A DNA stretch of 64,000 bases from an uncultured Clostridia bacterium. Lineage in GTDB: Bacteria > Bacillota > Clostridia > Christensenellales > UBA1242. The notes under the pieces were generated by a model. The model was not told the DNA's origin. It worked only from the letters and a program-made list of their open reading frames with translations, and ran no database searches. Positions within the stretch are counted from its first letter, which is position 1. Every line of letters starts with the position of its first letter. A program made the position numbers and the translations under genes. Of this stretch, positions 22,367 to 54,200 are shown piece by piece. The DNA is taken from positions 9 to 64,008 of the forward strand of contig CALWTI010000001.1 of the NCBI GenBank assembly GCA_944384425.1, written 5' to 3'.

Positions 22367-22394
22367 TCATATAAACTTTAATAGGAGGTTTACC

Positions 22395-32761: not shown

Positions 32762-32795
32762 AAAAAAACAATGAAGTTGAACTTCATTGTTTTTT
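32762..32795 (-). terminator. Rho-independent terminator of the giant B/C unit
   Basis: Stem acaatgaag/cttcattgt with A- and T-runs on both sides, about 10 nt after the giant B stop. Confidence 0.7.
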
Positions 32796-32801
32796 ATTGT
32801 G

Positions 32802-35800
32802 TTATTCATTCGAAGGCCAAGAAGAAATGTCGCCATTAATATAGCCGTAATACCCGTCTCCCACTCTTTCAAAGTTATTTATGCTGAAATTGCCAAGCTT
32901 AGCTTCTAACCCTTCATAGCCAGATGGAGAAAAACCATAAACCACAGTAGACAAATAAATTGCATATTGAAGTGGTATTCCTGTAATTGTATTGCCCATA
33001 CGCAAATTTTTTATTGACAAATCAATTTCCACATTTAGCCCATTTCTTACTGCCAACTCGATGTCATTGACTTCTTCTAAGATGTCGCCATTGTATCCGC
33101 CAATAAGCTTGGATACATAAACTCTATAAAGTTCTGAACCTTCTTCTTGTTCTGTATCACTTATTGAATTGTCACCATAAATGCTGATATCAGATGAAAT
33201 TGAAGTGTTTATACTGTTTGCAATTATTTCCAAAGTGCCACCTTCTGTTACGCTAGCACCGTCACTTGTAATTAAACCAATAACACTTCCAGCATAACTT
33301 GCATCCGATGTTTCTTCTTGTGCTAGTTTTGCTGGTTTTATAAGTTTGAGATTGGTTGCTTCATCTTTGCCAACTGTAAAGTCAGTGATTATGACATTAC
33401 CAAAAGTTCCACTAAATTCCACTTCGCCAATAATTCCACCAAGTGCATTTTGACCAGTTAAATCACCAGTAAAATTACTATTATTTATTGTCACACTTTG
33501 CGAAACTTTGCCTGCAAGTCCGCCCACACTGTCAACTGCAATGGTATTATTAAATTGTATGTCTATGTCAACATCACAATCATAAATGTTTGCTGGTTGC
33601 TGTGCAGAGCCTCTGACAATTCCACAAAGTCCACCAACTGCAATTGGAATTTTTGGCGTGAGATTGAAGATATAGTACGGCGTCACATCTTCGCCGTCTT
33701 CTATACTTACGCCTGAAACTTTGACATTTCTTAATGTTCCTTTAAGGTCGCCGACAATAATGCCACCATAAGCGCTTGCACGAATAAAGTAATTATCAAG
33801 CATTTGGTATTCATACGAGATGTCACGAACTTCTGCATTCATACCAATTCCGCCAAACATAAATCCGCTCACCATTCCTATTGTTGCAACGGCGTTTGTT
33901 ATGTTTGCATTTTTGAGTACACCAACTCCACCAAGATATCCAACAATACTTCCTGAATACGAAACAGTGTTATAATTTGAACCACCTTCTTCATAAAGTA
34001 TTTCTTTTTGAACAGATTGAGTTGTCCAATTAGAATTGTTGTTTGTTTGATAAGCATTTGTTGAAATTGAGGAGTATATATTTTGAATATCAAATGAATT
34101 TATTGTTCTTCCGAAAACTCCTCCAACAATGTTCTTTCCCAAAATCACATTTGAACTATTTCCAGAGTTATACCCATCGACAGTTATGTTATAAGCATAA
34201 ACTCTATAAACTGTACCTGCGACCGTACCAACATTGACTGCATTTGGAAGGTTTATGTATTTTGGAGAAAATTCAACATTTTGTATTGTTGCATAATCAT
34301 TACCATCGCCTATTTGTGCGAAGTATCCGCCCGATGTTAGTCCCGTACTTGTGTTGATTGAGAAGTTTGAAATAGTAAGACCATTGCCTTCAAAATATCC
34401 TGCTAGCGTGTATGAGTATAGCGAACTTACAACCAAGTTTTCTGCTGTGTAGTCAATATCTTTAACAAGTCTGTAATATTTTGAGTTGACATTTCTTATG
34501 CTATTTGAAATAAAATCTTCTTCAAATCTCACAGCTGATGTCACAATAATTGGGTTATACATTGAGCCTTCAGTGTTAGAGCCAGATGTTTCCGCGTACA
34601 CATACAATGTTTCGCCCGTTTCTTCAACATATTGACTGCTTTCTATATATTTTGATGACGATGCTAATATGTTTGCAGCAACTAGTTGTGGTCTATTCTC
34701 TCTAAATTGCATATATTGTCCATCGCTTTGCAAACTCTGAACAGTGATAAGCCTTGAATATTGCAAATAATTTCTATAATCACTTGCTGAAATTTTTGAG
34801 CCCGTGGTAATTGTGTTGTTAGTTAAATATGAATTGTTGTCTTTTGCATAGAACCAAACACCACTTGTTATGTCGTTGTTTGTGTTTATTGCAAAGGTGT
34901 TGAACAATTTTTCCCCAACAGTGTAATCTGAACCACTTGATGTGACTGCATAACCAATAGCAAACGAAATCACTGGTATTGCAGTCAAGCCTTCGCCGTA
35001 AAGTCCATTTGAAACATTTATTCCAACATTGAAGTTTTCATCACTTAAATAATAACTATCACTTATTGTTCCTGTGCAAGTGATATAGAATGGATAGTTA
35101 CCTGTGTCTCTATCTCCAAGTTTACTTGTTGTGTAAGATGATATTATTTCCCCGTTATTTGTACAAACAAATCCAGAGTTTATTGATGAAGATGTCAATG
35201 GAATATTTGCATAACAATTTGATATAGTTCCCTCATTTATATAAGCAAATGCACCCGCAATTGAGTTTGCTCTTATGATGTAATTTGTGTCTGTGGCGTA
35301 TATGTATGAAAGTCCAGTGGAAAATGCACCTTCAATATAACTTGCAAATACCGTTCCATAGTTTTGAGCAACAAAGCCCGCTGTGGAGTTGTTAACATTT
35401 GTACTTGAATTTCTTATGTAACTTCTCTTTACATAACTTGATGCAATGTGTCCATTATTTACTGCTACAAAGCCAGCAAGGTTTGCACCAAAACTTTCAA
35501 TGCGAACATTCACTCTTGAATTTGTTATAAAGCCCGAGTTAACCGCAACAAAAGGTGCAATGTTTGAAGTTGAAGTGAGTGACATAGGCGCCGAATTCGT
35601 CACGATGAGCGATGATGCATCATCTTGATAAACAACTCGGCAGTTGGTTATTGTGCCGTTGTTTTGAGCAGCAATTAGTCCAAAGTTAAATGAGTTAGCA
35701 CTGCTTTCATTTCTAAAATTGAATGTTGTGTTTCGACCAATCTCGACTGTTAGGTTGCAAATAACTGAATTTTCATCAACTGTTGAGAATAGTCCGAAGT

Positions 35801-38800
35801 TGTCAAAAGATGTGTAATCAGAATAAATTCCACTGAAAATTATTTTGTGGCTGTTACCATCAAGCCTTGCAATGCTTGCATCAATTGGTGTGAAATCTGA
35901 TGTGATTGTTATGTCGTCCATCAAAATATAGTAATTGTCATCACTCATATTCATAAGTTGCTCTTGTGTATATATTGGAAGTGGACTATCTAAAGATGTG
36001 GTTTGATTTACTGTTACATTAAACTGTTTAATATCAACATCGCTTATTTTTTCTATTTCTTCATCGCTAAGTGCCATGACTTGAACATAACCATCGAGGT
36101 ATTGAAGCTTTGCGAACACTCCGAGCGAGAATAGATTTTCACCAACATATTTAGTTGTTATGTTGTAGCCAGTTATATCCAAAATGCCATTACTTACATT
36201 TGTTTGGTTTGTAATTCTAACTAATCCATTTTCATCACTTAATTTATAATAGAACACACCATTTTGCTTTAAACTTGCTTTTAAGGCATTTACTGCTGTT
36301 GTTGCGTTGCCAGAATACTCCACATTAAGATTATCAATAATCAAATCTCTTATGTCGACACTATTGCCACGATTGAGTATTATCTCAGAATTTTCAAAAA
36401 CTTCATTCATATCATTAAGGTCACCGAGTACATATTCAACAATTGTGCATATGAACGAATTTCGTATTCCACTTGTTGTTACTCCGTCAACTGTGGTTGT
36501 TCCATAGTATGTGATTGTGACATCATAACCACCATATTGCTGACCGTGAGGATAGCTGATGTTATCTGCAATTTTTAAAAAGTATGCTCCGTTGTCGTTG
36601 ACTATTTGCGCATATGGTGATGAGCTATCAATGACTACATCTGAAACATTATAGCCCACTGTATTTATGTTTAATAAGTAATTATATCCCCTCGCAACAT
36701 AGTAATGGTCAGAAACATCTCTATCTGCAATTGAAACTTCAACAGTTTTGTTTAGAGAAATTGTCAATACTTTTTGTTGCTGAGAATATATAACTTCACC
36801 TTCTGCATTGTAGAAGTTTACATTGAGCGTAATTGAATCACCTTCAATGACATTTGTTGCCATTCTGTAAAGCACATTGAGTTCGCCACCGACAATTGAT
36901 GACTTCATAACTCTTATGCCCGTGCTTGTGAAAAATGCGTCAGAAGATATGACTGCTTGCCCTGGTTCGTTGTTTCTTGGAACCAAAAGTCCAAACAAAA
37001 CAACGTTGCCACTTGAAATGTTTTGTTGAGAATTTGTTACTTCAATGTAGGCATAGTCTGAATATTCTGGGTTTATTACAACTTTTAATATATTTGGCTC
37101 GCCCGCTGTTACAATGTTTGTTTCCGTCATTGAATAACTTGTGTTATAGACATAGTATCCATCACCTGTATCAATCAATATGACATCTTCGTTATTTGTG
37201 AAACTGTAATTCTTAACAATAACATTATTTATTGGTTGAGCTGAAAAATTTGCGTAAACATCTTTTTTAACTACGCCATCAGAACCTGTAAATGTAAATT
37301 TGTAATTACCTATTCTTACTGCGTTTTCTGTGTTCATTTCAAAAGTGTAGTCTATGTAATATCTACCATTTTCAAAATAAACTTCTGAGACCTTTGCAAT
37401 GAAATAATTATCAAAGTCTTCATCACCAAATTTGAGCACTTCGCCATTTTCAAGGTATGTGACATAAAGTTCAATCTTGTCATCTATATCGTCTGTTAAA
37501 TAACTTACTTTGACCATAAACACATCACTTGGTACCAAAGAAATGTTGGTCTTGTCACTTTCAATATTGTATATACCTTGTGTGTATGTCGTGTAAAGTA
37601 CAGCACTTGGCTCTACTTGGTCTTTTGTTGTTTCAACAAAAACATATTTTTGTGCATCATCGACATTTTGTGATTGAACAAGATACATCTTTGCGTTATT
37701 TACATCAAGATATATATAAAATTTAACTTCTTGAGGCACTGTTTGACTTTCAGTTCCTGCCCCTTGCAAAATCACAGTACCTGAGCTTTGCATTACTTTT
37801 ACATTATCGTTTGCGTCAATTTCAAGTTTTGCAGTGTTGTTGCTGACAAGTTCAACTCGCATATTCCCAACACTTGCAGTTGCATCAAATCTTGGATAGA
37901 TATTTACTGCATCTCTATTTGTCACTGCGATTTGAGAGTTTTGTGTTAGCATATTTGTGTAGTCTGACGACAAATACAAGTTTACGCCACTAACATAATT
38001 TGTGACAACGCAAGTTATTTGTTGGCTTATTGAAGCGTTGTGAGCAGAAGTCAAAGTTAATATCACCGAACCTGTCTTGTGCAATCTAAGTTTTCCTTCG
38101 CTCGTGATTGAGACAACAGAAGTTGCATTTGATGAAATTGTTATATCCACACTATTTGCGAATATATTTGAAGGCAAACTTTGAGTATTTAAAATGTTTA
38201 AATAACTTTGAAAAGCACTATCTTTTGCTTCATAATACATCAAAACAATTTTGTCTGTTTTTAAATTTAAATAATTTTCTGGCATGTCCATGTCGAAAAC
38301 TTTTTCAAACTGGTCAAGCTGAACATTTGCACCCGCTACAAGTTCGCCATAATAGGTGTTTATGTCTTCTTTGTTACCACTTTGCCCGTATTGAACAAAC
38401 GCCCTTGTTATGTATGAAAGTGCAGTATTTGAAGAATCAACTGCAACATTTACCGAATTGAATATTTTCGCAATACTTGCACTCGCATTTGAAACGATAA
38501 GTGTTGCGTCAAGACCTTGTGATGTTCTGTCATCTGTTGCTTCTACCTTGTTGTTTGCGATATCTTCTGTCGCGCTGTTGACCACATAACCGATGAGTCC
38601 TGCAACATAAGAATTACCACGAACAAACACCCTTGAAGTGTTATTCATAACTTCACCAGCATTGTCCATACGCCCAATAAGTCCGCCAACATTTGTGGAC
38701 TGCATTGCACTCACTCTTCCTGCTACAAGCAAGTTTGTGACTTCGCCACCATAATTTTGTCCGACGGTGCCACCAACTCCACCCATGGTTGAGTTAGAAC

Positions 38801-41800
38801 CCGTTACATTCAAATAAACTTGTGATGATAGTCCATAATTATTGTATGTGTTCATATTAGCAGGCTTTATAAACTGCAAAAGCCCTCGGTTTTCACCAAC
38901 AATACCACCGACATAACTAGTTCCCCCACTAAGCTCTACATCAAAGGTATCACCAGTTTGCATATTCACAAACAAAGTAGAGTTTGGTGCTGATGTAATT
39001 ATGTCAACAATGTATTCACCTTTGTTTTGACCAACACCACCGCCAATATATACAGCAGACTGGGCTTGTACAAAACTTTGCGTGAGATTGATGTTTACAT
39101 TTTCTATTTTTCCGTTGTTTACACCAGCCAAAAGTCCTATATATGAAATACTTGTAACATTGTCAATATCAATAGCTCCTTTAACAATCAAATTTTTTAT
39201 GTAAGCACCACTTGCAATACTTGAAAACAAACCGTAATAATCTCCAGCGTTTGCGCCTGTTGTTACAACATATGGAGAAGTAACTTTGAAGTTTGTTATG
39301 GTTGACACAGAACCGTCACTAGATGTCATACCTGAAATTCCACCTGTCAGTTCACCCAAAGGTGCGATTTCTTCACCGCCACCATCAATTGTTCCGTCAA
39401 TGACATAATATTTGGATAGGTCAATTGTTTTTAATTGTTCCCATGTTCCAATGTGAAGAGGGCTTGAAATTGAGCCATCTCCAACAACAATAGGGATTTC
39501 CATAGAAAAGTTATAATCATTTCTGTCACTGCTATTAAAAGATGAATTTGGTACAATTCTTATAATGCCACTTCCCCCACCAGCTCCCGTATATGTGACG
39601 ACAATTTTATTTTCATCATATTGCAACTGAACTATTGTTGAACTTGTTTCGTCATTTGGCTCAAACCATGCCGTGAAGCTTTGATTTGTTGCATTTTGAG
39701 GCAAAATATATGGGTCAAGTGTCTCTTGTGTATGCGATGGGTCAAGATATATCTCATCAACATAATTGTAAAGCCAAACCTCTTCAACTTGAACATACTG
39801 AACAATATTTATTTTTACAGTCGAAGAGATGATTGTTCCATATTCATAAATTTTTGCTGTTATTGTGAATGTTGCAATAGGACTTCCTGTTGCATCGCAC
39901 ACAAATGTCATTAAATCATTGTAGAAATAGCCATAAACAATACTTCCAGAATCTGTCAATTCATATCTTGAATTTGCAGAATCATAAATTGAAGAAACAG
40001 AAAATTCAAATTCAAGGTTTAAATCTTTTAAAAGCAAGTCATTTACATCAGTTAAAACACCATCAACCAAGATTCTAAATTCAATCATTGACATTGGTGT
40101 GTCAACATAACCAAGTGGAGTGTTTAAATCATAAACATCGACAGTACTTGAATATGTGGCGTCCAAATCTCCAGTATTTACTGCGTCAAATGTGAAACTT
40201 GATATTGGCTTGAAACATATAACATCAAAATCAAATTGTGTGCTTTGAAGCACATCATCATCAATGACTAGCATAAAGTTTTCTATTCTATTCATTTTAA
40301 CTTCTACATGAATAGTTTGCCTTGTATTGTCAACAGATGTGAATGTGAGCATATTTTGATTTATTGAAATGTTTGTACTATCTGTCTGATATGAAATCTC
40401 AAACATTGATTGACCTTGTATGTCGCGTGGAGATGTGTTTGCTAAAATTACAACATCACCAAGTCCACGCACTGCAATAAAGTCAATTGTTTCATTGTCG
40501 CCTATTTGTCTATACTCTACTTCTGCAATTTTTTCTTCGTTAGTGCCGACATAAAACCACAAATTGTCAACATCGAGCTCATCTCTAACTATTATGGTGA
40601 TATGCGTTGAAAGTCCACTTTCAAGCACAAGCGTGTAGTGTGCTTCACCAGCTCTATGCGCCACAATGTCAATTGAAGCAGTATTCTCTGCCGTTTGAGT
40701 AATTGTACAAATATTTAAAGACACTACATCGTTGTTTGAAGCAACTATTTTGCCGATGTATGCGTCGGGTTCTTGAACAACAAAACCGTTAAATGTTACA
40801 CTTTCACCATTTTTTACATAAATAGTTGAATTGGTGTAAGTTTCATCAACTCTAAAATCTGTTGCGCTTTTTTGTATTTTAAATTCTATGTCGTTATATA
40901 CTGGCTCACTTGTCAATTCTGCATTTACCATGGCTCTGACTAATATTGAATCGCCAATTGTTTCTGGCAAGACAGAACGACCATAAATTTTAAATGGAAC
41001 TGTGAGGTCAGTAATTTGGATATCGTCGCTTACTTGCTCCACTCCATAAATGATGCAAATATATTGGGCAATATCCGAGTAAGTTACTTCACGAAGTTCA
41101 TTTTCATCTTTGATATAATATGATAAAGTCAAATATCCATAATCAGAATTTGAAGGCTTTACGCTAAACAAAAATTGTTTTGCACTATTGATATCGTCAT
41201 TGTTGAATAAATTGACTTCTTGTACATCGCTAAGCCCGTTTATTAAAATACTTTCTAGCACTGATGCGATTTTGACATTATACATTAAATCAACATAATA
41301 AGCATCATAGCCAGCATACTTTACCCTAACCACCAAAACATCATCAACAAGCGAAAAGTCACTTGCTTGAATTGTCACATCTTTGATGTTTTGCATATTT
41401 GATGATTGAGTTGTTTCGGCAGGCGTATTCGTACTTTTTGAAAAGATTTCATATACATATGCCTCATCATACGCAAGTTGCAAAGTCTTTTGAAATAACT
41501 CTTTATCATTTTTAATTAGTTCAATATAGCTTTCGCCATCTTGCTGTATTGTTGGCAAAACTTTGCCATTTTCACTTAAATATATATTTTGTGTGTCAAT
41601 TTGATTAAACACTTTGACTGAAAATGAGCAAGTTATGTTTTCATTTGTCAAACTGACAGCAGTCACAACCACTTCGTCGGGCGTATCTTGGTCTGTTACA
41701 AGCAAGCCATTTTCAATAGTTTCAGTTCCTATTTGAAAACGAACACCACGGTCAAGTATTGAAGGTGGATTAAAATCTATCATATCACTTGAAAGTTGTA

Positions 41801-42215
41801 AAGATTGTCCACGAATTACATATAAAATAGTTCCACTTTTTAAACTCATACTTGATAGAGGTTCATAAACTTTGACTGGAATATCTATATATTTTAAATT
41901 TTCAAGCAAAGTTATTGTCAAAGTTGCTTTCCCTGGGGTATGGCCCATCACAGTTATGCGATATTTTCCATCACCAAGGTCTGTTGTTTTTGTTACAGTC
42001 GCAATTTGTTTGTCAAAAGAGTAGTTAAAGTTAATACTGGTAGAAAAATAATTTTCAACCGTAATTTCATAATCTTTACTTGAATTTTGTTCAAGTTCGA
42101 TGCTTTGGCTTGAAAAATGGAGAGAAAGATTATCATAACTTTCTCCGCAAGCTGAAAGTAGCCCCATGAATATTGAAATTAAAATCAAACCAAATGTTAC
42201 AAAATATTTTTTCAT
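32802..42215 (-). CDS. Giant protein B: 3,137-aa lipoprotein-type surface protein with Big_2-like Ig domains and three GLUG-like beta-helix blocks
   Basis: 9.4-kb stop-free frame with RBS GGAGAG. Signal peptide MKKYFVTFGLILISIFMGLLSAC has lipobox LSAC. Big_2-like segment: LPQNATNQSFTAWF..GSGIIRIVP. Repeated motifs: VGGIVGENRG, VGGLIGRMDNAG, AGLIGYV, AGFVAVNNGHIASSYV, AGFVAQNYGTVFASYI, VGGVFGR, VGGLCGIV, VGGLAGKV, LGGIIGEV. Confidence 0.9.
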   Translation of the reverse strand: MKKYFVTFGLILISIFMGLLSACGESYDNLSLHFSSQSIELEQNSSKDYEITVENYFSTSINFNYSFDKQIATVTKTTDLGDGKYRITVMGHTPGKATLTITLLENLKYIDIPVKVYEPLSSMSLKSGTILYVIRGQSLQLSSDMIDFNPPSILDRGVRFQIGTETIENGLLVTDQDTPDEVVVTAVSLTNENITCSFSVKVFNQIDTQNIYLSENGKVLPTIQQDGESYIELIKNDKELFQKTLQLAYDEAYVYEIFSKSTNTPAETTQSSNMQNIKDVTIQASDFSLVDDVLVVRVKYAGYDAYYVDLMYNVKIASVLESILINGLSDVQEVNLFNNDDINSAKQFLFSVKPSNSDYGYLTLSYYIKDENELREVTYSDIAQYICIIYGVEQVSDDIQITDLTVPFKIYGRSVLPETIGDSILVRAMVNAELTSEPVYNDIEFKIQKSATDFRVDETYTNSTIYVKNGESVTFNGFVVQEPDAYIGKIVASNNDVVSLNICTITQTAENTASIDIVAHRAGEAHYTLVLESGLSTHITIIVRDELDVDNLWFYVGTNEEKIAEVEYRQIGDNETIDFIAVRGLGDVVILANTSPRDIQGQSMFEISYQTDSTNISINQNMLTFTSVDNTRQTIHVEVKMNRIENFMLVIDDDVLQSTQFDFDVICFKPISSFTFDAVNTGDLDATYSSTVDVYDLNTPLGYVDTPMSMIEFRILVDGVLTDVNDLLLKDLNLEFEFSVSSIYDSANSRYELTDSGSIVYGYFYNDLMTFVCDATGSPIATFTITAKIYEYGTIISSTVKINIVQYVQVEEVWLYNYVDEIYLDPSHTQETLDPYILPQNATNQSFTAWFEPNDETSSTIVQLQYDENKIVVTYTGAGGGSGIIRIVPNSSFNSSDRNDYNFSMEIPIVVGDGSISSPLHIGTWEQLKTIDLSKYYVIDGTIDGGGEEIAPLGELTGGISGMTSSDGSVSTITNFKVTSPYVVTTGANAGDYYGLFSSIASGAYIKNLIVKGAIDIDNVTSISYIGLLAGVNNGKIENVNINLTQSFVQAQSAVYIGGGVGQNKGEYIVDIITSAPNSTLFVNMQTGDTFDVELSGGTSYVGGIVGENRGLLQFIKPANMNTYNNYGLSSQVYLNVTGSNSTMGGVGGTVGQNYGGEVTNLLVAGRVSAMQSTNVGGLIGRMDNAGEVMNNTSRVFVRGNSYVAGLIGYVVNSATEDIANNKVEATDDRTSQGLDATLIVSNASASIAKIFNSVNVAVDSSNTALSYITRAFVQYGQSGNKEDINTYYGELVAGANVQLDQFEKVFDMDMPENYLNLKTDKIVLMYYEAKDSAFQSYLNILNTQSLPSNIFANSVDITISSNATSVVSITSEGKLRLHKTGSVILTLTSAHNASISQQITCVVTNYVSGVNLYLSSDYTNMLTQNSQIAVTNRDAVNIYPRFDATASVGNMRVELVSNNTAKLEIDANDNVKVMQSSGTVILQGAGTESQTVPQEVKFYIYLDVNNAKMYLVQSQNVDDAQKYVFVETTKDQVEPSAVLYTTYTQGIYNIESDKTNISLVPSDVFMVKVSYLTDDIDDKIELYVTYLENGEVLKFGDEDFDNYFIAKVSEVYFENGRYYIDYTFEMNTENAVRIGNYKFTFTGSDGVVKKDVYANFSAQPINNVIVKNYSFTNNEDVILIDTGDGYYVYNTSYSMTETNIVTAGEPNILKVVINPEYSDYAYIEVTNSQQNISSGNVVLFGLLVPRNNEPGQAVISSDAFFTSTGIRVMKSSIVGGELNVLYRMATNVIEGDSITLNVNFYNAEGEVIYSQQQKVLTISLNKTVEVSIADRDVSDHYYVARGYNYLLNINTVGYNVSDVVIDSSSPYAQIVNDNGAYFLKIADNISYPHGQQYGGYDVTITYYGTTTVDGVTTSGIRNSFICTIVEYVLGDLNDMNEVFENSEIILNRGNSVDIRDLIIDNLNVEYSGNATTAVNALKASLKQNGVFYYKLSDENGLVRITNQTNVSNGILDITGYNITTKYVGENLFSLGVFAKLQYLDGYVQVMALSDEEIEKISDVDIKQFNVTVNQTTSLDSPLPIYTQEQLMNMSDDNYYILMDDITITSDFTPIDASIARLDGNSHKIIFSGIYSDYTSFDNFGLFSTVDENSVICNLTVEIGRNTTFNFRNESSANSFNFGLIAAQNNGTITNCRVVYQDDASSLIVTNSAPMSLTSTSNIAPFVAVNSGFITNSRVNVRIESFGANLAGFVAVNNGHIASSYVKRSYIRNSSTNVNNSTAGFVAQNYGTVFASYIEGAFSTGLSYIYATDTNYIIRANSIAGAFAYINEGTISNCYANIPLTSSSINSGFVCTNNGEIISSYTTSKLGDRDTGNYPFYITCTGTISDSYYLSDENFNVGINVSNGLYGEGLTAIPVISFAIGYAVTSSGSDYTVGEKLFNTFAINTNNDITSGVWFYAKDNNSYLTNNTITTGSKISASDYRNYLQYSRLITVQSLQSDGQYMQFRENRPQLVAANILASSSKYIESSQYVEETGETLYVYAETSGSNTEGSMYNPIIVTSAVRFEEDFISNSIRNVNSKYYRLVKDIDYTAENLVVSSLYSYTLAGYFEGNGLTISNFSINTSTGLTSGGYFAQIGDGNDYATIQNVEFSPKYINLPNAVNVGTVAGTVYRVYAYNITVDGYNSGNSSNVILGKNIVGGVFGRTINSFDIQNIYSSISTNAYQTNNNSNWTTQSVQKEILYEEGGSNYNTVSYSGSIVGYLGGVGVLKNANITNAVATIGMVSGFMFGGIGMNAEVRDISYEYQMLDNYFIRASAYGGIIVGDLKGTLRNVKVSGVSIEDGEDVTPYYIFNLTPKIPIAVGGLCGIVRGSAQQPANIYDCDVDIDIQFNNTIAVDSVGGLAGKVSQSVTINNSNFTGDLTGQNALGGIIGEVEFSGTFGNVIITDFTVGKDEATNLKLIKPAKLAQEETSDASYAGSVIGLITSDGASVTEGGTLEIIANSINTSISSDISIYGDNSISDTEQEEGSELYRVYVSKLIGGYNGDILEEVNDIELAVRNGLNVEIDLSIKNLRMGNTITGIPLQYAIYLSTVVYGFSPSGYEGLEAKLGNFSINNFERVGDGYYGYINGDISSWPSNE
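42147..42215 (-). other. Lipoprotein signal peptide of giant B (residues 1-23, Cys23)
   Basis: KK n-region, hydrophobic core, L-S-A-C lipobox. Confidence 0.7.
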
Positions 42216-42259
42216 TTTCTCTCCATTTTTTGCCTTAGTTTACTTGTCAAATACTTGTA

Positions 42260-45200
42260 CTATGCTTGTATTTCTACTGTGCAACTTAAATTTCCAAACA
42301 CCACATCAAATGTGCTTTGTCCCACAACAATTACAGCAGAAGCAAAATCAGTACCTTTAATTTCATCAGATGATATATAAATTCCGTAAGGTGAGTATCT
42401 ATTATAATTAGGTGCAACATCACTAAAACTGTTTGTGTCAAAGTATTGAATAAGATTTGTGCTTGTATCAAATGTCCATGTGTACTCTTGTATTGAATAA
42501 ACGCTTCCAACATTTCCATCCATTCCTGCAACTCCATCAAGTGTTGTCGTCACGGTTTCAACAAATGAGAATGTTCCAGAGCCATCATCACCGACAATAT
42601 CTCTTTTGATAACAACAGTTGCGTTCGCTTCAGCTATTGTTGCGTCCTCCCCTTCACCGTCAATATAAGACATCGTCCCTGTAAATGTTGTTTCACCTAT
42701 ATCACTAAGTCCATTGTCCCCATTGTACCAGTCATTAGCCAAGTTGTGTCTAACATAAACATACTCGCTAACTATTCTTTCTTCGCCAAACTCCGTAGTG
42801 AATTTTGCATTGTTTTGCAAAACGCTAACTCCGCCTGGCACAGAAACGCCTAAACTCTTATATGTTGAAACCTCAACATCTTCACCAACATACAAAATTT
42901 GACCTTCAATTTGTTCTAGCAAATATCCTTCCAAAGTGTAATAAACTTTTTGTTCTTCTGAAAGCTGTACTGCATAATTTTGGTTGAATGGTATTAGTTT
43001 AATATCGCCTATGTTGATACCAAAATCTAGTTCCAATGATATTTGTTTATTACCATAAGTCCATTCAACTTTTGAATGAGATTGAAGTTCGCCGTCAATA
43101 TATGTATTGTCGTACAAATAGTAATAAATTGTCGACAATGGCAACAAGTCTGAATAATCAGATTGTGCTGTCAAATCATCATCCATATTGAAGCGGTATC
43201 CATTACTTATATCATATAACAAACTGTCCACTCTGAGCAATATAACACCACTACCATTTTTGCTTAGTGCCATATCGGTCATAGTCGATTTAATGTCATT
43301 ATAAACATCCTGACCACTCTTAAACAATGACCAATCGCCGTCTTGCTTTACGAAAATCAAAGTATTGTTCGACTCGTCAACAAAAGCCTGTGCTTCGACA
43401 TCAAGAGAACTATCTGATGCTGTGTAGGTTTCAAGTTTGCTTAAAGTTTGTCTTTCAAAGATAGCAACTGCTTGCTCTTCGCTTAAAGCGGTATGCACTT
43501 CGATATATCCATTTGTTGTGTATGAAGCCAACCAATCCTTAAATACATAGTAGAAGTTTTGTCCAATTAGTTCGGCAGAATCTTTTGAATCGCTTGCAGT
43601 GTAGTAGACATACTGTCCGTCTGTAAGCTGTACACTATTTGTCAAACCATTAAATGAAAGTGTGATTGTCGCATCGCTTTGTGTGTAAGATTCAGATATT
43701 GTGTATTTCCCTTCATCCATAGAAATCGTAACTTCATGACCAATTAATACGAAATTGCCATCAACATATTTAAATATATATGTCTCATTATCTTTTGTTA
43801 CTAGCAGTTGGTTTGTAGCCTTATCGTATTTGAACATATATCCTGTCCCCGAAAGCTTTATGTAACCTGTTTGGGCGGTATCACCAATTGTATTTATAAA
43901 GGTAAGCAGTGTGTCGCTGTCTACAATTTCGACAGTTACTCCAAAATCATTTCCGTCTTCGGTATCGCTATTTGAGAAGTCGCCTTCGTTGCCCAAAGCT
44001 CCCTCTTGAATTATGTAACGATTGTTATTAAATACAAAGCCATCAGTATACGAAACGAAATCGGTAAGCACACCATCAGTGTAGTTAAATACAAATATTT
44101 GTGTGGTTGCTCCGCCGTCGCTAGTTGCTCCTTCTACCTTGCTCATAGTCAAAACCACTGCATTTAATGGTGTTTCAAGGTCTTGATACGAATAGACTGG
44201 TGTATTCTTTATTGTGTATGATCTCCATGTGCTATTTTCGTTCACGATAATGTTAGCAGTTCGCACTTCTTGGTCGACTATTGTTTTCTCACCTACATTT
44301 GCCGTAAAGGTAAAGTTGATGCTTATGTCTCTAATAGATTTTATATCAATGCTATCAAAATAGACTTTGTATGTGCTATTTTGTGTCACTGTATGCTCCA
44401 TTATCTTCGACAAATTGTCTGGGCTTGCTGCATCAATATAGTAACTTGTATCTGTTTTTGTAGTTTTGATTTCAAATGAGATAACATCTCTAAGATCAAT
44501 GTCGTTAACATTTTTGATTTTATCTAATGAAAGCAAGTTGTTTTCATAAGACATAATATTTGCATCTTGTGTAGGGAAGAACATAAAATTCCTTGCCATT
44601 GCATCTTTAAATTCAATAAGCTGGTCGGCTGAGTATGAAATAGAACCAAGATAATATGCACTTAAAGAATTGCCAGAATTATCAATTAACATTATGTGTT
44701 CTTGATACAAATAAACTGTTTGATTGTTGTTATTTTCAGTTCTGCCATTATAAATTGATATAAACAAAGGTTTGTATTGTTTAAAATCATCTATGCTTAT
44801 TAAATTGCCAACAGTGACAGATACATCTTGTGAATCGTCACGCACATAATCATAACTTGAACTGTCAATTCGAGCATTTTCTATATAATTTTCCTTGCCA
44901 TCTGGAAGCTTAATATATAGTTCGCTATTTGTTGTTGAAACAATGCCTTCAATGTCTGTTTCGCTACCATCTTCATTTGTGAAGTTTAAAGATACTTTGT
45001 TCTTGCCAGAAGATTGTAAATCTTCATAAATGCCCCCATTCTTTTGTTTGTAAATTTCGATTGATTTAGGGTCAGAATAGCTTGGAGCCGCATTATTTTT
45101 AGACGATAACGTGCGATAGGTTAACACTAGCGACTTGTTTATAATATCAATACTTTCATATATTATTGAATTTGACTCCACCTCCATACTTGATGTGTCA

Positions 45201-48200
45201 AAATTTATTGATTGAATCTCTAAATTGAGCAAAAGGGTTTTGTCATCTAATAATGAATATTTTTCGCTAATACTTTCTGCTCTATCTTCATTGTCTGCCT
45301 TCACATATTCTTTTTTAGTATCTATGTATGAGTTGCCATCTGCTGATATTTGCGATGTCGATACTTTTTCAATTAAGAATTTAAAATCACCAGACTTTAA
45401 TACGAAATTGTCACCTCTTAAACTCATTGGAATTTCAGCGCCATCTTTTATTGCCTTTTGATAAATATCGCTTGTTATGTTGTATTCATACGCACATACG
45501 AATTGTATTGATGCATCTGTCACAATGTCACTAATCCGTGAATTGTCGAACCTATAACCTTTTATTTCAAACTTATATATGCTTTCTTCAATATTATGAA
45601 CATCATCATCATAATAAGCATCTTTGTAAACATTGCCATTTGATATAACAATATATATATCTTTTTTATAATTATATACTGTATATTGTTCACCATTCAC
45701 ATATGCATTTGACATTTTGGTATCTACTTGAGTTTGGTATTCATACATATCGATTTTTGCGTATGATACTTCTCCCGTTGAGTTTTTGGCTATTTTCCCT
45801 ACAACTTGTGCAGAATTTATAAGCAAATCATCGCTTGGTTTTAACATTTGACTATTTTCGTCAACTGCATAGCTTGGTTTTGCCATTGCAAGAACAGAAG
45901 TTTGCACATTTGATGTACCTAACCACTCATAACCACTGCCTCTATTACCAATAAAGTTATCGGCATATGCATACTCTGAGTATTCTGTGCCATTTACACC
46001 TGAAGTTATGATTAACTTATGTGCTGTACTTCCAATATTTAAAGTTGTTTGAGTTGATATTGGCAAGTATGTGTTTTGATTTGAATATCCTATAACACCA
46101 CCAGCATAAGTGCTTGTTCCGCTTATTCCAGCAGTTGCTTCAATAGAGTCAAGGTCAATTGATATTTCACTTAACTTAATTGCGTCTTTCGTATCAGAAT
46201 TATCAAAATATCCAACAAGTCCACCTGCATAAACTGAATCTGAATAGGTGTTTTCAACATCAATTTTGCCAGTTATGTCAAGTTCTGCATTTTCTCCTAA
46301 AATTGTTGAGTTTTCCATATATCCAATTGCGCCACCAACTGTCGTGTTTGCCGATGTTGACACAATTCCATCATCAAACAAGTTTATCGAAACAATGCCA
46401 TCTAATGATATGCTAGTTTCATTAGCATAGCCAACAAGTCCACCAATCCCTGTTTGTGCTGTTTGACTTGCGTTGCCTGTACCTGTTAAGTCTGTTGAAA
46501 GCTCGACTTTGCTATTTTGAATTATTACATTACCATTTTCAATTTTGCCGATGAATCCGCCGATATTTTGTTTCCTGATACTGGTCTTTTGACCTTGGTC
46601 ATAGTCACGAATGTGCAATGAAACATCAGTGTTTGTTATTGTGATTTCACCACCATCAACAACTGTACCAATAAGTCCACCCATTGATTTATCTAATAAA
46701 GCAATTGATTCTTGCTGAGTGTGATATGACAAATTAATGTCAGAGATTGTTACATTTTTGCCATAACTCACTAGACCAATCGATTTTGATTGTTCAGTAT
46801 CTGCAACCAAAAATTCGGTAATCTCTGCTTGTTCGTAATTTGATGATGTGATTGTTCCACTAAAAGGATGTCTCTCGTCAACGCCAAATCCACTCACCGA
46901 TGAGCCAAAACTTATGCTGTTCCCTACGAAGTCTAATGCAATTGTAATCTGCCCTGTTTCTTTAATTGCATAAACAAGGCTAGCAAATTTTTCGCTGTCA
47001 TTTAAAGTGTCAAAATCACTAGAAGCAATCGCTTCACTACTTGTATATTTTAAAATATTATTGACAAATTTTACTGTTCCCCTGTAGTCTTCCAAACTTT
47101 TTACTTCTATTGTTGCCTCTGCATCCTCTTCACTGCCAGATGCCGATGTATTGTTATTAAACAACTGTTCATAAGATGTGCTAGCATATTCAGGAGAATT
47201 ATTTATAACGATATTTCCGTCTATATACTCCCAACCACCATCCCATGCCACATCACTTGACCAGGCATTTGGTTGGTTTCCTGTTCCAACAGTTGAGATT
47301 GAATCAATTACGCTTTGTGGAGTTTTAAATAAATACTTGTAATCGCTATCTTTCATTGAAATGTCATTCAATGAATACAAATTTCGACTTCCAAAACTAT
47401 CAGTAACATCATTTGTATCGTTTGGTTGATAGAAAACATCTTTTTTCCATGCGACATTACTGCCTGTATCTCCGTCGTTTTCTGCCTCTTTGCCAATTGG
47501 ATGGAAATACACGTTATAAACATACAAGTCCTCTCTATTGTTGCCATCAAAATTTTCATGGGTGTTATAAATATAATTATTATAAACACCTAAGCCCATC
47601 CATTGTTCGCCATCACGCAATTTAGATATATACTCTTTAATAATGGATTTATTTTGTGGATTGAGCTTTGGGTTGCCTAATGTGAAATCCAAGCCTTCAA
47701 CTGTTTCTGATTTAAAAATGAAAGTTCCTGGTGCAATTACAAAAGACTTTATTATTGATAACAAGTCAAAATTTTCCCACATATCCATAACTCCTCTGTG
47801 AATATCAGGGTAATAATCTGACATCAATTGTGCATCAAACCCACTGCCTTCTGCATAATAAGCATCTACATCAACATTGACAAAAATCGACGCTACCAGT
47901 ACGGCCACATAAGGATAAAAATTATAATGAAACATGCTCGTTAGCCATGCATAAAGTGCACCCAAAAGGGCATACGACATGTAGGCTAGAGGCTCTGAAT
48001 CAACATCATAATATGCAAGTACTTTCCTCGCTTCTATTCCACCATATACATTTTCACAGTTATTTGATACTCTATTTATATAATTGTAATTATTGGCTAT
48101 TCCAGCAGCATATGCATGTTGCGATACTTTCGTGTAAACTAATTTATCATAATGGTTAAATAAATTATCATCGATACTGCTTGTATAAACATTGTACGAT

Positions 48201-51200
48201 TTTATCGCATTCTCCGATTCCCAATCTGTTATATCGTCATCGTTTTCATATGAATCAGATAAACTATCATAATTATATTTCGCATTAGCCACTATATTTG
48301 ACGCATTGTTATAACAATCTTCTATGCGTCCACCAAATCCGCTTATTCCCCCAACATAGCAAGTTGATATATTGTATGGATTTCCAGCATATATTTCTGC
48401 TTTTGATAGAAGTGCAGAATTAATAATGTCCGACTTAGTCGTTGATACTTCTTCACCATTAAGACTTCCCACATATCCTACTATTCCGCCAACATACAAT
48501 GTTATATTTTTATCGCAGTGCTGTGTGTTAAATGAGTCATTTGCATACACTATATCAGACAAAACATACATTGAGTTTGATAGATAGGCATTTGAAACAG
48601 TACCATCTTCCAAAAGTCCAACAACTCCGCCTACAACTATTGTTTCATCAACAGTTGGCTTGTTTCTAAACGATATAATAAGTTCCTTACCAACGTCACA
48701 GTTTGTAACAGTTGCACCATTGGTTACATGACCAACAATACCACCATAAACAAATTTATTAAAGTCAACTATATTCAACGCAACCGAATCATTGTCGTTT
48801 GTTATATCTGGCGAAGTTGCACTACATTCAGAGAGCTTCGATCCCTCTCCAAGCTGACCAACGATATTGCCATAGTAATATGTTTCCCCATTTTCCGACT
48901 GCACAAACTGGTAAATCTCTGGGTTTACACCAGTCACTTTAATATTTGTTATTACAGATGATTTTGCTATATTAGCAATTAAACCAACTATATAATTTTT
49001 ATTTTGTATTGTTGGAGACAAATTATCAATAACCAAATTTTTAAATATACAGTTTGTAGTTACATTAAATATTCCGCCCCCAGTCACATTTAAATTAGAT
49101 ATTGAATGTGTATATCCTTCAAGGGTATCATAACCATCCAAAACAATATTTTGGATATCTTCTAATGAACTCCACTTTAAAGTTGATTGTGAAACATAAC
49201 TACCATTTATGTCATTGATTAAATTAAAATATGTTTGCGTAGCTGGTGAAGTTTCTGATGGAGTGTCAGAAGATTTAGGCAATGTGTCCAATTGTCCAAG
49301 TTTGCCAAGATTTGGTATTTGGAATGGATTATCCAAAGTTCCTTTTCCTGTTTCATGATGCATATAATCAATATCTTGATATGCACCACCACTGAACGAA
49401 CCATAACCATATGCATACTCTTTGTCATAACTAAACGTTCCGATTTTCGTTGTTGGCATTGTTCCTGTGTAATTCACACTTAAAGCATTTGTTAAAGAGC
49501 CAGTTCCAGCCCCTTGTATGTAAAATTCAGCGGCGACTGAATCATAGTAACAATTTATAACAGTTTCAGATTCTGAATCATAAGCGTAAATACTATAATT
49601 ATTTTTCATATTACTCCCGCTTATTTCTTTATCTACGCCAAACACTACTCTCATGTTTGTATAACTATCATACACAGTGCCAGCAGAAACAAGGTAGACA
49701 TAAAGGTTTGAACCTTCAGATTTCACTGCATTTTCAGCATCAATGTTACCACTTGAATAGCTGTTAACAATCACTCCATCGTTTGTTCCCACTAATCCTG
49801 CGGCTGCGACATCTTGTTTTTGCGACTCGTTATCAGGATGACCAACATAGGTGTTGTCATTACTACCTGCATAAGTCGTGGTAATATTTAAACTTACAAA
49901 ACTATCTTTTATAAGTCCTGTGTTTATTCCCACAAGCCCTGCAATAGGAGCTTTCCCTGCATCAATTATTCCAACAAGTTTTTGTGGATTCGTGCTTGTT
50001 GATTCAATAGTGCTTATTGTTGTATCCAAACTGCTATTTATTTCGTTACTTCTGCTTACATTACATGAATATATTATTCCATTATTGCTATATGTTAGCC
50101 CAGCAACCGGTATTTCATTTGAACTATTAACTCCAGACGAATTTTTTGAATCAATGACAAAGTTTGCAACCACCACCACGCCTGACACACTGCTGTTTTT
50201 ATCTATCGATGAAATTGGTGAAATTGATGAAATTGATTTTGCATCTTTAGGTATATTGTTGTTTGAAAATGTCAAATATGCACCATCGCCAATCACCACT
50301 GTGTTAACTAGGTCTCCAATTTTATTTACTCCACCAGTTGTGTCGTCAGACAATCTTGTGTACCAAGTTTCGTTGTTGTTAATACTTGGTCTATTAAAAG
50401 AATTTGAAGGGTTTAATTTTGTTCCGCCTGTTTCGCCTCTATAAAGAATTTGAATATATTCGTTATTTTCTTCATTGTTTTCATCAAAACCTATGACAGA
50501 TTTTATGCCACCGTTAAGGTTATCAAGAATATTGCCATAAGCAACATTTGTACCAAGGCTATCCGTGCAAAGAGTTGCAACGTGAGCATAATAATTAGTT
50601 GAAGTGTCTGCTGCGTTTGAAACCTTGCCAGAGCCGACAAGTGCGTTTGCTATGTATGAATCGTTTACTAACGCTCTATCATATCTATTAAACAATGTTG
50701 CAATTGACGTGTTGTTTTCAATGTATGCCGTAGTACCTTCACTACTAACCACGCCAATAATTCCACCATATGTGAGATTATTGAGTACTTTTGAAATAGA
50801 TTTTGTATTTGGCGTGCTTTTATCTCCACTTTCTTCATATGATGGATAGAAATTGCCAGCACTTATGTTTTGTTCAAGTATTACATTTTGACCATTAACC
50901 ACACCAGCAATTCCTGACAAAACCAAAGAAACCTTACTATAATCTGAACTATTGACAATTTCTTGATTATTGTTTTCTTCTACAATGTGTTTAAAATCTC
51001 CAAAAGAGAAGCAAGAACCCAGTGTAGATTCTCCATCAACATTGCCAGCAATTCCACCTGCATAAACAGAATAAGAATTTGTTCCATTTGTTGCTCTTAA
51101 AATTATATCACCATAACTTTCTGCCCCGTATAAAGAGCCGTCCATTTTGCCAACAATTCCACCAATGTATGCGTAGCGTCCACTTCCACTTAATGTGACA

Positions 51201-54200
51201 TCAATAAGAGACTGCATTGAGTGCTTGTTGCCATTATTTAAACTTGCATTTTCCAAACTGCCAAACAAGCTACCAACGCTATTTCCATAATCTTCCCTTA
51301 AAAGGCTTAAGCTCGTAACATTTATTCCGAAAACATCATCATCTTTTGTTGAATTGTTTACAACAATTTTTGCGTCCTCGCTTAAAGATGTGGTTTTGCC
51401 ATATCCCAAAATTCCACCTATGTTTGAATTTTGAGAAGAGATATCAATCAAAACGTCAATATCTATCTTGTCCAAAGTCACATTTTGAGAATAGCCTATA
51501 ATTCCACCAATATATGAATTAACAAATTTTACGCCACTTTCTGCCGACAAATCTACTTTTAGTCCCATGGAAGAAATAACGGCGTTGTCAGCACTTCCAA
51601 ATAGCATACCCATATTCAATCCATACACTGTTGAGTCTTTTGACTGTGACTTAAACTGTATGGTTGAATCAGAAATTCCAAATTCGCTTTCACTATCTTG
51701 TGAACCGTTAATTGAAATTGTTGACTGAGAATTCGATGCAAAACGACCACCAACTAGTCCAACGGAGAATGAATTTACATCGCTATTTTTTATGTCGTTA
51801 AAAATTATAGCACAATTTTGTATGTTAATTGAAGATACTCCACCACCACTTGTAAATTGTGAATCTCCAAATACAAGACCAACATAGAGTGAACTTTGCA
51901 ATGTATTTGATGCACCCGCAGAAGCCTCATATGTTATTTGACTTGAGGTGATTGAGATATTTCTAAATGTTGTTATTCCTCGTGCCATACTTGTAACAAG
52001 ACCAAAGCGAGAAGTTAATGTACTTATTTTGGCATTCACATTTACAAAACTAAGATCAGTGAATGTTGTGTTTGATGCGTTTGTGACAAGTATTGCATTT
52101 TGACTAATGTTAGCACTTTCAAAAGATGCACCCTCTTCAAATGATATCGTGAAATTGCTAAATGTTGCATTAGCAGTATTTAAGAAAATTGATTTTGTTT
52201 GAGTAACTCCTCTGAATACAAAACCATATTCATATCTGTTGTCAAGACCTCTCAAAGTACCAGAGAATGATGTAATTGGTTCTATTGGCTCTGTTATCCC
52301 AATATAGTGTGCTGAACTAGTTATGACATTGTTTACATCATTAAGGTCTGGATCAATAACAAATACGTCATCTTCACCAGCTGTACGCAATCTTTCAATA
52401 TCACTTTGAGTTCTAATGTATTGAATGTTGCTTGCATATCCAAATAAGATATGTGGGAACAATTCATTTTCATCTCTGTCCCAAGAATTTATATCCCATT
52501 TATTGCCAGTAAAGAATACCGAATAATTAGCCCCATCATCGCCAAAGCCTGTTATTGTGCTTGCGAATGAAGGTAGTTCACTGCCACCATTTTCATCATC
52601 AATATATTTTGTATCAGAAATAGCAATATTTGTATCGCCATTTTTAAAGACGATGTTATCTTTATTAAATGATACTACATAAGTGTATGTAAGGTCTATG
52701 TTATTGACATCTTCAACCTTGCTATCAACTTGAATAACGGCATTTGCCTGCCCCTCAGACTCATCTGCAAGCCAATTGCCCCAATAGTTTATTGCGTTGA
52801 CCTTGTCAAGACTCATACTTGCACGTGCAAGTCCGACAATTCCTGATGCATATCTTGACTGAACATCGCCTGACGCATAAACTTCAACAATGTTTGTTTC
52901 AACATATGTGTCAGGATTTGATGACATCTCACTTAGACCGACTATTCCACCTGCATAAACACCACCACTTAGTGAATTTTGAGTGTTTGTGTTAATAACG
53001 TTTAACTTTGAATAAGACTTTTCAATCTTTCCGCTAACTTGCAAGCCAACAAGACCACCTATCGCTATTGGAGTGTAACCCTGTGTCATAAATAGCGTGG
53101 TGTTTCCTCTATCTACGCTGTAATCACCTTGATAATAATTTTTTATATTTGCTTCAATGCTGTCATCACCAGCGTCGTTTGGATCGTCATCGCCTATCTG
53201 CCAAGTTTTTTCGTGTTCACTTCTAACTTGACGAATATATCCTGCGTTATATCCAACGATACCGCCTGCAAAACCATTGTAAGAATATATACCTTGTTTT
53301 GTGTAGTCAGTTGAATCAACATAACTTAGCTCATACAAAGCATCTTGAAGAACTGTTAATGGCCCTACATATCCAGTGACGCCACCAACTGTTCCTCCTG
53401 ATATTATGCTTGTTCCAAGTGTTTTAAGCATAACGGCGTTGCCATCAGACGAAACTTCTGACTCTGCATAAGTGGTTACATTGATTGAGCCTTCACCATA
53501 CGCATCTATGATACCAACAACTCCGCCAGCATATGAAATGTAAGCGTTTAATATGTCACTTGTTCTATTATAAGTATTATATGATATATAACTATTTGAA
53601 ACATAGTTAGTTGGATTCATACTTGCAGTAACACTGACGCTTTCCACACTTAAATTAAAGATGTAAGAATCGCCAATAACTCTACCAACAAGTCCACCAA
53701 CAACATTTCTACCTCTGACTGTGACGCTGTTTGTGTCTGGGAATGCCGAAGTGAGTGAAACATTAGTAATTGTTGAATTTTCAACCGTTCCGCTGAGTGC
53801 ACCTACATACTCGACACCTGATGCTTCAACACCGAATACATCTCCACTTGCATTTGTTGAACCCAAAACCAAATTGACATTTTGAACAATCGCACCATCG
53901 GTCACACTTGCGAACATACCAAAATTGATAGCGTTGCCTTCTGGGTCAGAAAGTGCAAGTCCTGAGATTGTCAAGCCGTTTCCATCAAATTTACCTATGG
54001 AGCCTTGATTTCCTTCATCTTTGTATTTTCCAGTTAAGGTCATACTTGATGAAGCAAGGGTATATGTATTATTTGAATCGGTAACAAGTTCACTTAAATC
54101 AATATCCTTTATCAATCTATATGAACCGAATATCTCGCCAGTTGTGGTATTGACATATCTTGATGCGCTTGTGTTATTTGTCCCACTAAATACACTAGCA

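Follow-up and report, generated by a model that had tools for sequence, protein, structure and literature searches.

This study was concerned with two adjacent giant genes, designated giant B and giant C, in a stretch of contig CALWTI010000001.1 (assembly GCA_944384425.1) from an uncultured, low-GC, gut-associated Christensenellales-like Clostridia lineage. The whole stretch of 64 kilobases (kb) is called the window, and the coordinates of B, C and a further large gene, giant A, are given in its numbering. Giants B and C are the two largest genes of the window and together occupy 29 kb, which is 45% of its length. An original prediction, made from the DNA letters, had proposed that B carries three beta-helix blocks opened by a common entry motif and that it is a shorter paralogue of C. 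The results indicate, with a probability of about 75%, that C and B are an ancient tandem duplicate which now serves as a two-gene operon for lipid-anchored, non-catalytic, adhesin-like surface proteins, where we show the homology, the fold, the age and the conserved layout and infer the surface display, the co-transcription and the adhesion. The genes and the signals around them are listed below, with lengths in amino acids (aa) or nucleotides (nt).

42260-61912, minus strand: giant C, 6,550 aa as the listed open reading frame (ORF); the C-type paralogue
32802-42215, minus strand: giant B, ORF of 3,137 aa; the B-type paralogue
10673-22018, minus strand: giant A, ORF of 3,781 aa
61956..61984, minus strand: promoter-like site before C, TTGACA-17-TATACT, 11 of 12 consensus positions; a consensus match only
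42216..42259, minus strand: C-B intergenic spacer, 44 nt, with a GGAG ribosome-binding site 6 nt before the ATG of B
32763..32795, minus strand: terminator-like hairpin and T-run immediately past the stop codon of B

The start of C is probably ATG 61885 rather than TTG 61912, because a GAGGAG ribosome-binding site lies 8 nt upstream of this ATG and a typical MKK signal peptide begins there; the product would then be about 6,541 aa. The promoter-like site lies about 70 nt upstream of ATG 61885. The hairpin after B has the stem caatgaagt/acttcattg followed by ttttttt on the minus strand; the scan had listed the plus strand. Since a promoter-like site precedes C, the 44-nt gap holds a ribosome-binding site and a hairpin follows B, these consensus matches suggest that C and B would form one two-gene transcription unit. 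B is followed by holB, a PSP1-domain gene, a methyltransferase gene and rsmI, and for this reason the surroundings of B are regarded as an ordinary chromosomal context in a Firmicutes-type genome of about 34% GC.

Giant B as a paralogue of giant C

The domains of B are listed from the start of the protein to its end, where Ig stands for immunoglobulin.

42147..42215, minus strand: signal peptide with lipobox (MKKYFVTFGLILISIFMGLLSA followed by C), by pattern only
39789..42146, minus strand: N-terminal beta-rich region, aa 24-809, homologous to C 13 to about 865
39474..39788, minus strand: Ig-like domain, aa 810-914, directly before block 1; the junction is common to B and C
38526..39473, minus strand: beta-helix block 1, aa 915-1230 (helix about 920-1211), entry SSPLHIGTWEQLKTIDLSKYYVIDG
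35994..38525, minus strand: central spacer, aa 1231-2074, no family match; collinear with C about 1225-2090
35016..35993, minus strand: beta-helix block 2, aa 2075-2400 (helix about 2079-2390), entry DSPLPIYTQEQLMNMSDDNYYILMDDI...LDGNSHKIIFSG
34569..35015, minus strand: small alpha/beta linker domain, aa 2401-2549, between blocks 2 and 3
33096..34568, minus strand: beta-helix block 3, aa 2550-3040 (helix about 2556-3070 in the model), entry MYNPIIVTSAVRFEEDF...YYRLVKDIDY...FEGNGLTISNFSI
32805..33095, minus strand: B-specific C-terminal tail, aa 3041-3137, of low model confidence and with no counterpart in C

BLASTP with composition-based statistics found three collinear high-scoring segment pairs between the two proteins: B 1-213 with C 13-235 (23% identity, E 1.6e-10), B 797-1111 with C 854-1176 (1e-9) and B 2065-2765 with C 2084-2806 (28% identity over 810 columns, 2.5e-41). 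A profile of B and 19 orthologues covers C residues 10-1144, 1125-2264 and 2300-3034 (1e-39, 4e-40 and 8e-47, respectively), and this match takes in about 1,700 residues outside the helices. The global alignment of B with C 1-3100 spans 2,735 columns at 28.6% identity and scores 1091; the control, in which C was shuffled in 50-residue windows, scored 135 +/- 33. The proposal that B is a shorter paralogue of C by duplication is upheld by all three comparisons, and the alignment extends beyond low-complexity motifs into regions outside the blocks. On this evidence B is paralogous over its full length to the N-terminal half of C, and C divides as follows.

52763..61885, minus strand: part of C homologous end to end with B, aa about 10-3050 in ORF numbering, from the profile and the global alignment
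42263..52762, minus strand: C-specific C-terminal extension, aa about 3051-6550, about 3,500 aa, with no counterpart in B

The C extension contains about four further helices at roughly aa 3470-3780, 3970-4150, 4260-4630 and 4980-5410, as located by block profiles and clusters of the GLUG-core motif with approximate boundaries. It may represent a gain in C or a loss in B. The original prediction had spoken of differential expansion after duplication. C is indeed longer and has more blocks, but there is no internal difference in block number, and the surplus is the single C-terminal extension of about 3,500 aa. Similarly, the mature N-termini, which had been called near-identical, are homologous but only at the level of the first segment pair (23% identity over B 1-213, E 1.6e-10).

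Convergence or compositional bias could also be proposed, in which B and C would resemble each other as repeat proteins rich in N, S, T, G, I and V with similar GGxxG rungs. The three giants do have almost equal amino-acid composition, the rungs are short and degenerate, and the body of block 1 in B matches that of C at 22 bits. However, giant A, with the same composition, was not matched by the B profile, and neither were reversed C or 20 locally shuffled copies of C. In addition, B and C are collinear over 3,000 residues, including the 1,700 or so outside the helices, and the BLAST value of 2.5e-41 was obtained with composition-based statistics. Convergence is hardly credible in view of these results.

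The relationship by common descent was also seen in the individual blocks. The pairs B2-C2 and B3-C3 score 105 and 58 bits, and non-corresponding pairs score 18-34 bits. The block-2 profile matched C twice at 3e-23, and the block-3 profile matched C 2557-3033 at 5e-22. Blocks 2 and 3 of B each resemble the block at the corresponding position in C far more than they resemble the other blocks of B. For block 1, the equivalence of B and C would rest on collinearity and on the conserved Ig-like junction.

A search for DNA repeats between B and C found nothing beyond fragments of about 30-44 nt which code for GGxxG. Recent gene conversion between the two genes was rejected, since only these fragments are common to both. 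Giant A was rejected as a third paralogue, as it has no BLAST, profile or motif match to B, C or any fetched locus. It has no GGxxG rung motifs and no Pfam family; its N-terminus (MKFTTFLKVFAISLAC...) is signal- or lipobox-like and is followed by a second hydrophobic stretch.

The beta-helix blocks and their nearest known folds

Two AlphaFold2 models were built on orthologue alignments. Model 1 (B 796-1260) has a predicted local distance difference test score (pLDDT) of 87.3 and a predicted template modeling score (pTM) of 0.83, and model 2 (B 2065-3137) has a pLDDT of 79.8 and a pTM of 0.83. Model 1 contains an Ig-like beta-sandwich at about B 812-911 and, at once after it, a beta-helix. Model 2 contains two beta-helices with a small alpha/beta linker between them (residues about 337-478 of the model), and its confidence falls across the last 150 residues or so. 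The linker is conserved in the B-type orthologues and has no Pfam match. The three blocks proposed for B were recovered as right-handed beta-helices in these models, with boundaries that fit those first drawn and with the entry motif opening each helix. Every sequence string quoted in the original prediction lies at the nucleotide position given for it (nine of nine in B and three of three in C), and the entry strings SSPLHIG..., DSPLPIY... and MYNPIIV... were located at nt 39467, 35990 and 34562, respectively.

In each beta-helix, the entry motif makes up the N-terminal cap, with two strands joined by a short helix. The cap reads as a strand (xPxxI), a short helix (xEQL) and a strand (YYxL..DI), with (F/L)(D/E)GN(G/S)xxI in addition in blocks 2 and 3. 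The motif is conserved in blocks 2 and 3 of both B and C and is degenerate in block 1 of both. A loose regular expression for it found one site in B and two sites in C, where shuffled sequences are expected to give 0.015-0.03. B has 12 copies of the GLUG-core motif (GG[LIV]xG, AGFV and similar), every one of them within the three blocks, which make up 36% of the protein. In C there are 22, grouped in about six or seven clusters, and giant A has none.

The blocks of B were also compared with each other. The hhalign comparisons gave probabilities of 99.4% for blocks 1 and 2 (P 3.7e-21), 99.0% for blocks 1 and 3 (4.7e-18) and 94.9% for blocks 2 and 3 (4.6e-8); the controls, block 1 with the Ig-like domain and block 1 with the linker, gave 0.1% and 0.0%. 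The block pairs are in register from the entry motif. For example, the block-1 profile matches block 2 at 1e-8, from profile position 2 and residue 2075. Within B, neither plain BLASTP nor phmmer run on tiles aligned any block with another. The description of the blocks as the same therefore holds at the level of profile and fold (hhalign and AlphaFold2) but not at the level of BLAST or phmmer. All three are old copies of one module that have diverged strongly.

The Pfam family GLUG (PF07581) has a gathering cut-off of 20.5 bits. The blocks scanned singly scored 21.1 bits (block 1), 7.9 bits (block 2) and 22.1 bits (block 3). In alignment A1, which holds 13 sequences (B, 11 orthologue segments and the C counterpart), GLUG was matched by four of the 13 (best E 2.7e-11), and in alignment A2 by one of 11. 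Pfam and NCBIfam scans of whole A, B and C found no families. The 465-aa and 1,073-aa segments of B had no match to GLUG, which passes only when blocks of about 300-500 aa are scanned singly. Because GLUG is missed in the whole giants and in segments of 465-1,073 aa, automated annotation of such giants will list no domains.

The Foldseek comparison of block 1 with the PDB placed 7uvl (8.6e-5), 7uvk (2.1e-4), 3n6z (2.3e-4) and 6xjb (5.8e-4) at the top, with a probability of 1.0. The first two are IgA1 metalloproteases of G. haemolysans, 6xjb is that of S. pneumoniae and 3n6z is a 'putative IgA1 protease' of Bacteroides ovatus. In the BFVD viral library, a phage 'putative immunoglobulin A1 protease' matched at 5e-5. 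For blocks 2-3, all PDB matches are right-handed beta-helices, and the sole match with a probability of 0.99 is 7uvl (E 0.05). The models suggest that the blocks are divergent GLUG-type right-handed beta-helices and that their fold is nearest to the non-catalytic N-terminal helix of streptococcal IgA1 protease. In the pneumococcal enzyme this helix (residues 781-1070) is unusually small, lacks protruding elements and is non-catalytic; its ligand is the Fab of IgA1, and its movement gates the active site (PMC7695701).

The blocks share with the GLUG helices (PF07581; 6XJA/6XJB, 7UVK/7UVL and 3N6Z BACOVA_03286) a compact right-handed parallel helix of about 290-320 residues, GGxxG-type rungs and no large excursions. 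In contrast to the M26 IgA1 metalloproteases, B and C lack the M26 catalytic domain, HExxH, the G5 domain and LPxTG; there are three copies of the helix in B and about seven in C, not one, and both proteins are predicted to be lipid-anchored. As for M26 features, HExxH is absent from all three giants, and neither Pfam nor NCBIfam gave a peptidase family. The gut archaeon Methanimicrococcus blatticola has 15 GLUG membrane proteins which were proposed to be adhesin-like (PMC9723798). These resemble B and C in being gut-associated and membrane-bound, with GLUG repeats, no enzymatic domain and a presumed role in adhesion; however, they are archaeal and far smaller, whereas the present pair consists of paralogues of 3.1 and 6.5 thousand aa (kaa) with a fixed domain order. 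No Flg_new (Listeria-Bacteroides) repeat was detected in B or C. Giant modular Gram-positive adhesins that pair Ig-like stalks with a beta-solenoid binding region, such as that of the Lactobacillus reuteri serine-rich-repeat protein (5NXK), are likewise very long and beta-rich, with surface display inferred for B and C, and 5nxk was among the Foldseek matches of blocks 2-3 without being significant. Those adhesins are anchored by LPxTG and sortase and use accessory Sec export, whereas B and C carry the signal of a lipoprotein and lack both serine-rich repeats and a sortase motif.

A catalytic role for the blocks would make the giants surface-tethered polysaccharide lyases or hydrolases (pectate-lyase, PL6 or tailspike-like) which degrade dietary or host glycans. 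The lowest Foldseek E values for blocks 2-3 do belong to such proteins, namely the PL6 alginate lyase 7o7t (0.023), the fucoidan lyase FdlA, a GH55 laminarinase and phage tailspikes; the BFVD matches include pectate-lyase-superfamily and tailspike proteins; and the sample names indicate a gut organism, for which glycan degradation is a common function. However, these enzyme fold matches are not significant (E > 0.02, probability 0.08-0.38, root-mean-square deviation > 15 A), and the matches with a probability of 0.99-1.0 are to the non-catalytic IgA1-protease helix and to a GLUG-annotated phage protein. Nearly all columns that are invariant in the orthologue alignments hold glycine, asparagine or a hydrophobic residue, as expected for beta-helix rungs. 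They contain no conserved cluster of Asp, Glu, Lys, His or Arg on the helix body, and the only charged invariants in A2 are D37 and R518, both within entry motifs. Membership in PL1, PL6, GH28, GH55 or the tailspikes had no support from a family match or from a charged cluster in the invariant columns, and no Pfam or NCBIfam lyase or hydrolase family matched at E <= 0.1-1. Catalytic blocks, although the leading alternative, are considered unlikely. The non-catalytic reading of the blocks is preferred because the invariant columns are of the glycine, asparagine and hydrophobic kind and because the IgA1 protease helix binds Fab without catalysis.

The domain directly before block 1 had been labeled Big_2. 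Pfam Big_2 (PF02368; gathering cut-off 22.8 bits) had no match in aa 796-914 at E <= 10, and the label thus lacks support from Pfam; the domain is like Big_2 in being an Ig-like sandwich in the AlphaFold2 model and unlike it in having no Pfam match. Foldseek matched it to the C-terminal Ig-like domain of lambda gpV, 2l04 (TM 0.66), and to Ig domains of titin. The 2l04 structure, from the lambda tail tube protein, is classed as Big_2. The alignment of this pre-block segment between B and C, which had been made by eye, was reproduced by phmmer (B 836-962 with C 901-1027 at 6e-8) and by the Ig profile (C 890-964 at 6e-9). When the non-helix parts of B were compared with Pfam in ten tiles, only the first tile (about 200 aa) gave sub-threshold matches, to Invasin_D3 and Big_2; over aa 24-220 the Big_2 score is 15.8 bits, under the cut-off of 22.8 bits. 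The beta-rich N-terminal stretch of about 800 aa in B and C probably consists of Ig-like domains.

Age and conservation of the pair

Relatives of B were sought in a collection of 5.8 billion proteins, and 19 were found, with identities from 99% to 26% and lengths of 3,112-3,606 aa except for the truncated P0013 (2,080 aa). In addition, a scan of one genome per GTDB species found 58 loci. Nearly all of them are from metagenome-assembled genomes (MAGs) of uncultured Clostridia, Christensenella, Catabacter or Caccovivens from human or animal guts, and the nearest is 91% identical. Individual loci are given here as L numbers. The C-B tandem recurs on the contigs of two of the 19 relatives, in L001 (6,599 and 3,213 aa) and in L003 (5,193 and 3,222 aa), with gaps of about 30-40 nt, and the B of L003 is 27% identical to that of the window.

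The block profiles found block 1, block 2, the linker and block 3 in the same order and at the same positions in 41 of the fetched loci, some of which are from the same contig or species. The Ig match before block 1 was present in all of the 41 but L036. The family layout is a lipobox, about 800 aa, the Ig-like domain, helix 1, a spacer of about 850-950 aa, helix 2, the linker and helix 3, and the B of the window has this layout. The C-type proteins have the first three blocks in common and then vary in length from 4,692 to >7,114 aa.

When the profile of blocks 2-3 was run with HMMER over 1.84 billion cluster representatives, 17,371 proteins matched at E <= 1e-3, and 1,114 matched at E <= 1e-30. 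Apart from some truncated proteins, nearly all of the 150 best belong to the B type (3.1-3.9 kaa, matched at about 2,100-3,400) or to the C type (4.8-6.6 kaa, matched at about 2,085-3,110). A literature search on GLUG and on Christensenellales surface proteins found no description of the B/C family.

A neighbor-joining tree of the block 2-3 region, midpoint-rooted and without support values, separated a B clade from a C clade. The pairs from the same genome fell on opposite sides (L003; L015/L052; L016/L051). These comparisons and the tandem pairs of L001 and L003 show that the C-B duplication is ancient, and the layout of B is fixed across species. Because the B and C clades are separate, the genes of the same genome are on opposite sides and B and C share no DNA repeats, the order of events is triplication of the helix, then the B/C duplication and then speciation.

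A recent, strain-variable duplication, with a block number still changing by recombination as in contingency-type adhesin loci, would predict a different pattern. It is in keeping with the tandem arrangement on the same strand, the 44-nt gap, the range of C-type lengths and the fourth block in a subgroup of proteins in the B position. However, B and C have 28.6% amino-acid identity and no DNA repeats, B-types at 99%, 91% and 88% identity are equal in length within about 16 residues, and the three-block layout is kept down to 26% identity, with the B and C of the same genome in different clades. The original prediction had suggested that block number be compared in related genomes; B showed no strain variation, and relatives that are 88-99% identical are equal in length. 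A recent duplication is thus very improbable, and an ancient one is preferred.

The subgroup with four blocks in the B position comprises L039, L041-L044, L046 and L047. These proteins have 3,420-4,067 aa and are mostly from Hadza gut MAGs. Their fourth helix is block-1-like and lies C-terminal to block 3. The subgroup may be an intermediate or a separate duplication.

The neighbors of the pair differ between loci. In most relatives (L008, L010, L017, L022, L024-L037 and others), ORFs of about 1,240 and 1,180 aa follow the B-type gene on the same strand; in L008, the only locus checked for motifs, they have the rpoB (GEMEV) and rpoC (NADFDGD) signatures. The giant pair is often the immediate upstream neighbor of the RNA polymerase core genes, and the window instead has holB after B. 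In L028, L031, L032, L036 and L037, the gene immediately upstream of B is a complete ORF of about 915-918 aa and not a C-type giant. Directly downstream of B, a 939-aa ORF is found in L001 (19779-22598), L015 (13362-16181) and L016 (13363-16182). It has two block-1-like beta-helices (1e-7 and 2e-6) and is a small third member of the module family. The 918-aa ORF of the window (22293-25049, plus strand) was considered as kin of this 939-aa GLUG protein and was rejected, since it is unrelated by comparison; it has no Pfam match.

Predicted surface anchoring and proposed function

The N-terminus of B consists of MKK, a hydrophobic stretch and LSA, followed by a cysteine at residue 23. All 19 B orthologues share this lipobox cysteine, and the alignment of their N-termini has the consensus [LF]x[AG]C-G-E. 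Both B and C fit the lipobox pattern [LVI][ASTVI][GAS]C of Lgt/LspA substrates, as a pattern match only. C has LYAC-GE, like the ending in B, plus an earlier IVGC. LPxTG was not found anywhere in A, B or C, and their C-termini are not hydrophobic and have no C-terminal anchor.

In the proposed mechanism, an N-terminal diacylglyceryl-cysteine would tether each protein to the membrane. The Ig-like and beta-rich stretches would form a stalk that crosses the wall and projects past it, and the beta-helices would provide non-catalytic binding surfaces for host, dietary or neighboring-cell ligands.

Several points weigh against an ancient pair of lipid-anchored, adhesin-like GLUG proteins. First, the function of every member of the B/C family is derived from sequence, models and analogy. 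Precomputed annotation lists no Pfam domain for any of the 19 relatives of B, and none has an informative name; two are named, both as 'hypothetical protein', and one of these two is from a 'Clostridia bacterium' MAG. Secondly, GLUG membership is marginal for the window's own blocks, with block 2 at 7.9 bits and nothing in the whole protein or the 465-aa segment. Third, sequence-profile searches of the PDB with A1 and A2 found nothing at E <= 1; in addition, blocks 2-3 have no PDB fold match at E < 1e-3, and their numerically best E values belong to polysaccharide lyases and tailspikes. Fourth, the body of block 1 is at background level between B and C (22 bits), and the tree, without support values and midpoint-rooted, has a divergent four-block group on the C side. 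Fifth, aa 24-809 and 1231-2074 of B, about 60% of its length, have no family assignment and lie outside the AlphaFold2 models. Lastly, the lipoprotein signal is identified by pattern only, and C has two candidate lipobox cysteines.

With these points considered, the pair is a real but fairly ordinary adhesin-like gene duplication in an undescribed, surprisingly conserved family. The two largest genes of the window are an old paralogous pair, probably lipid-anchored and GLUG-type, and not recent repeats or assembly artefacts. The analysis also brings to light a large family from uncultured gut Clostridia (1,114 representatives at E <= 1e-30) that is entirely without annotation and has no whole-protein match in Pfam or NCBIfam; family models could be made from the profiles and boundaries of its Ig-like domain, linker and three helices. 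Christensenellales-like bacteria have been repeatedly linked to host phenotype and are poorly understood at the cell-surface level. Giants B and C are prime candidates for their host- or particle-attachment apparatus.

A more specific reading, rather unlikely but conceivable, is that C and B form a conserved heteromeric envelope structure, such as a lipid-anchored fiber or coat, of a large uncultured Christensenellales-like gut lineage and are not interchangeable adhesins. It is suggested because the B helices keep their identity, position and length at 26% identity, the pair stays in tandem and it is often upstream of rpoB-rpoC. These constant features do not fit fast-evolving adhesins. If the reading is true, a fixed structural role, or three fixed different ligands, would explain the constancy of the B helices, and the pair would represent a new protein family of >1,000 sequence clusters with >90% of its length invisible to current domain libraries.

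Three other features of the window were noted. A 188-aa ORF with a GTG start (49878-50444, plus strand) lies on the opposite strand within giant C and most likely arose by chance in this low-GC DNA. Between the M23-peptidase gene (62824-63423, minus strand) and the promoter region of C is a perfect 15-bp hairpin with A/T flanks (62795-62827), which resembles a bidirectional terminator. Just downstream of giant A is a PLD-type gene (9135-10601, minus strand) with two PLDc domains, which is cardiolipin-synthase-like.

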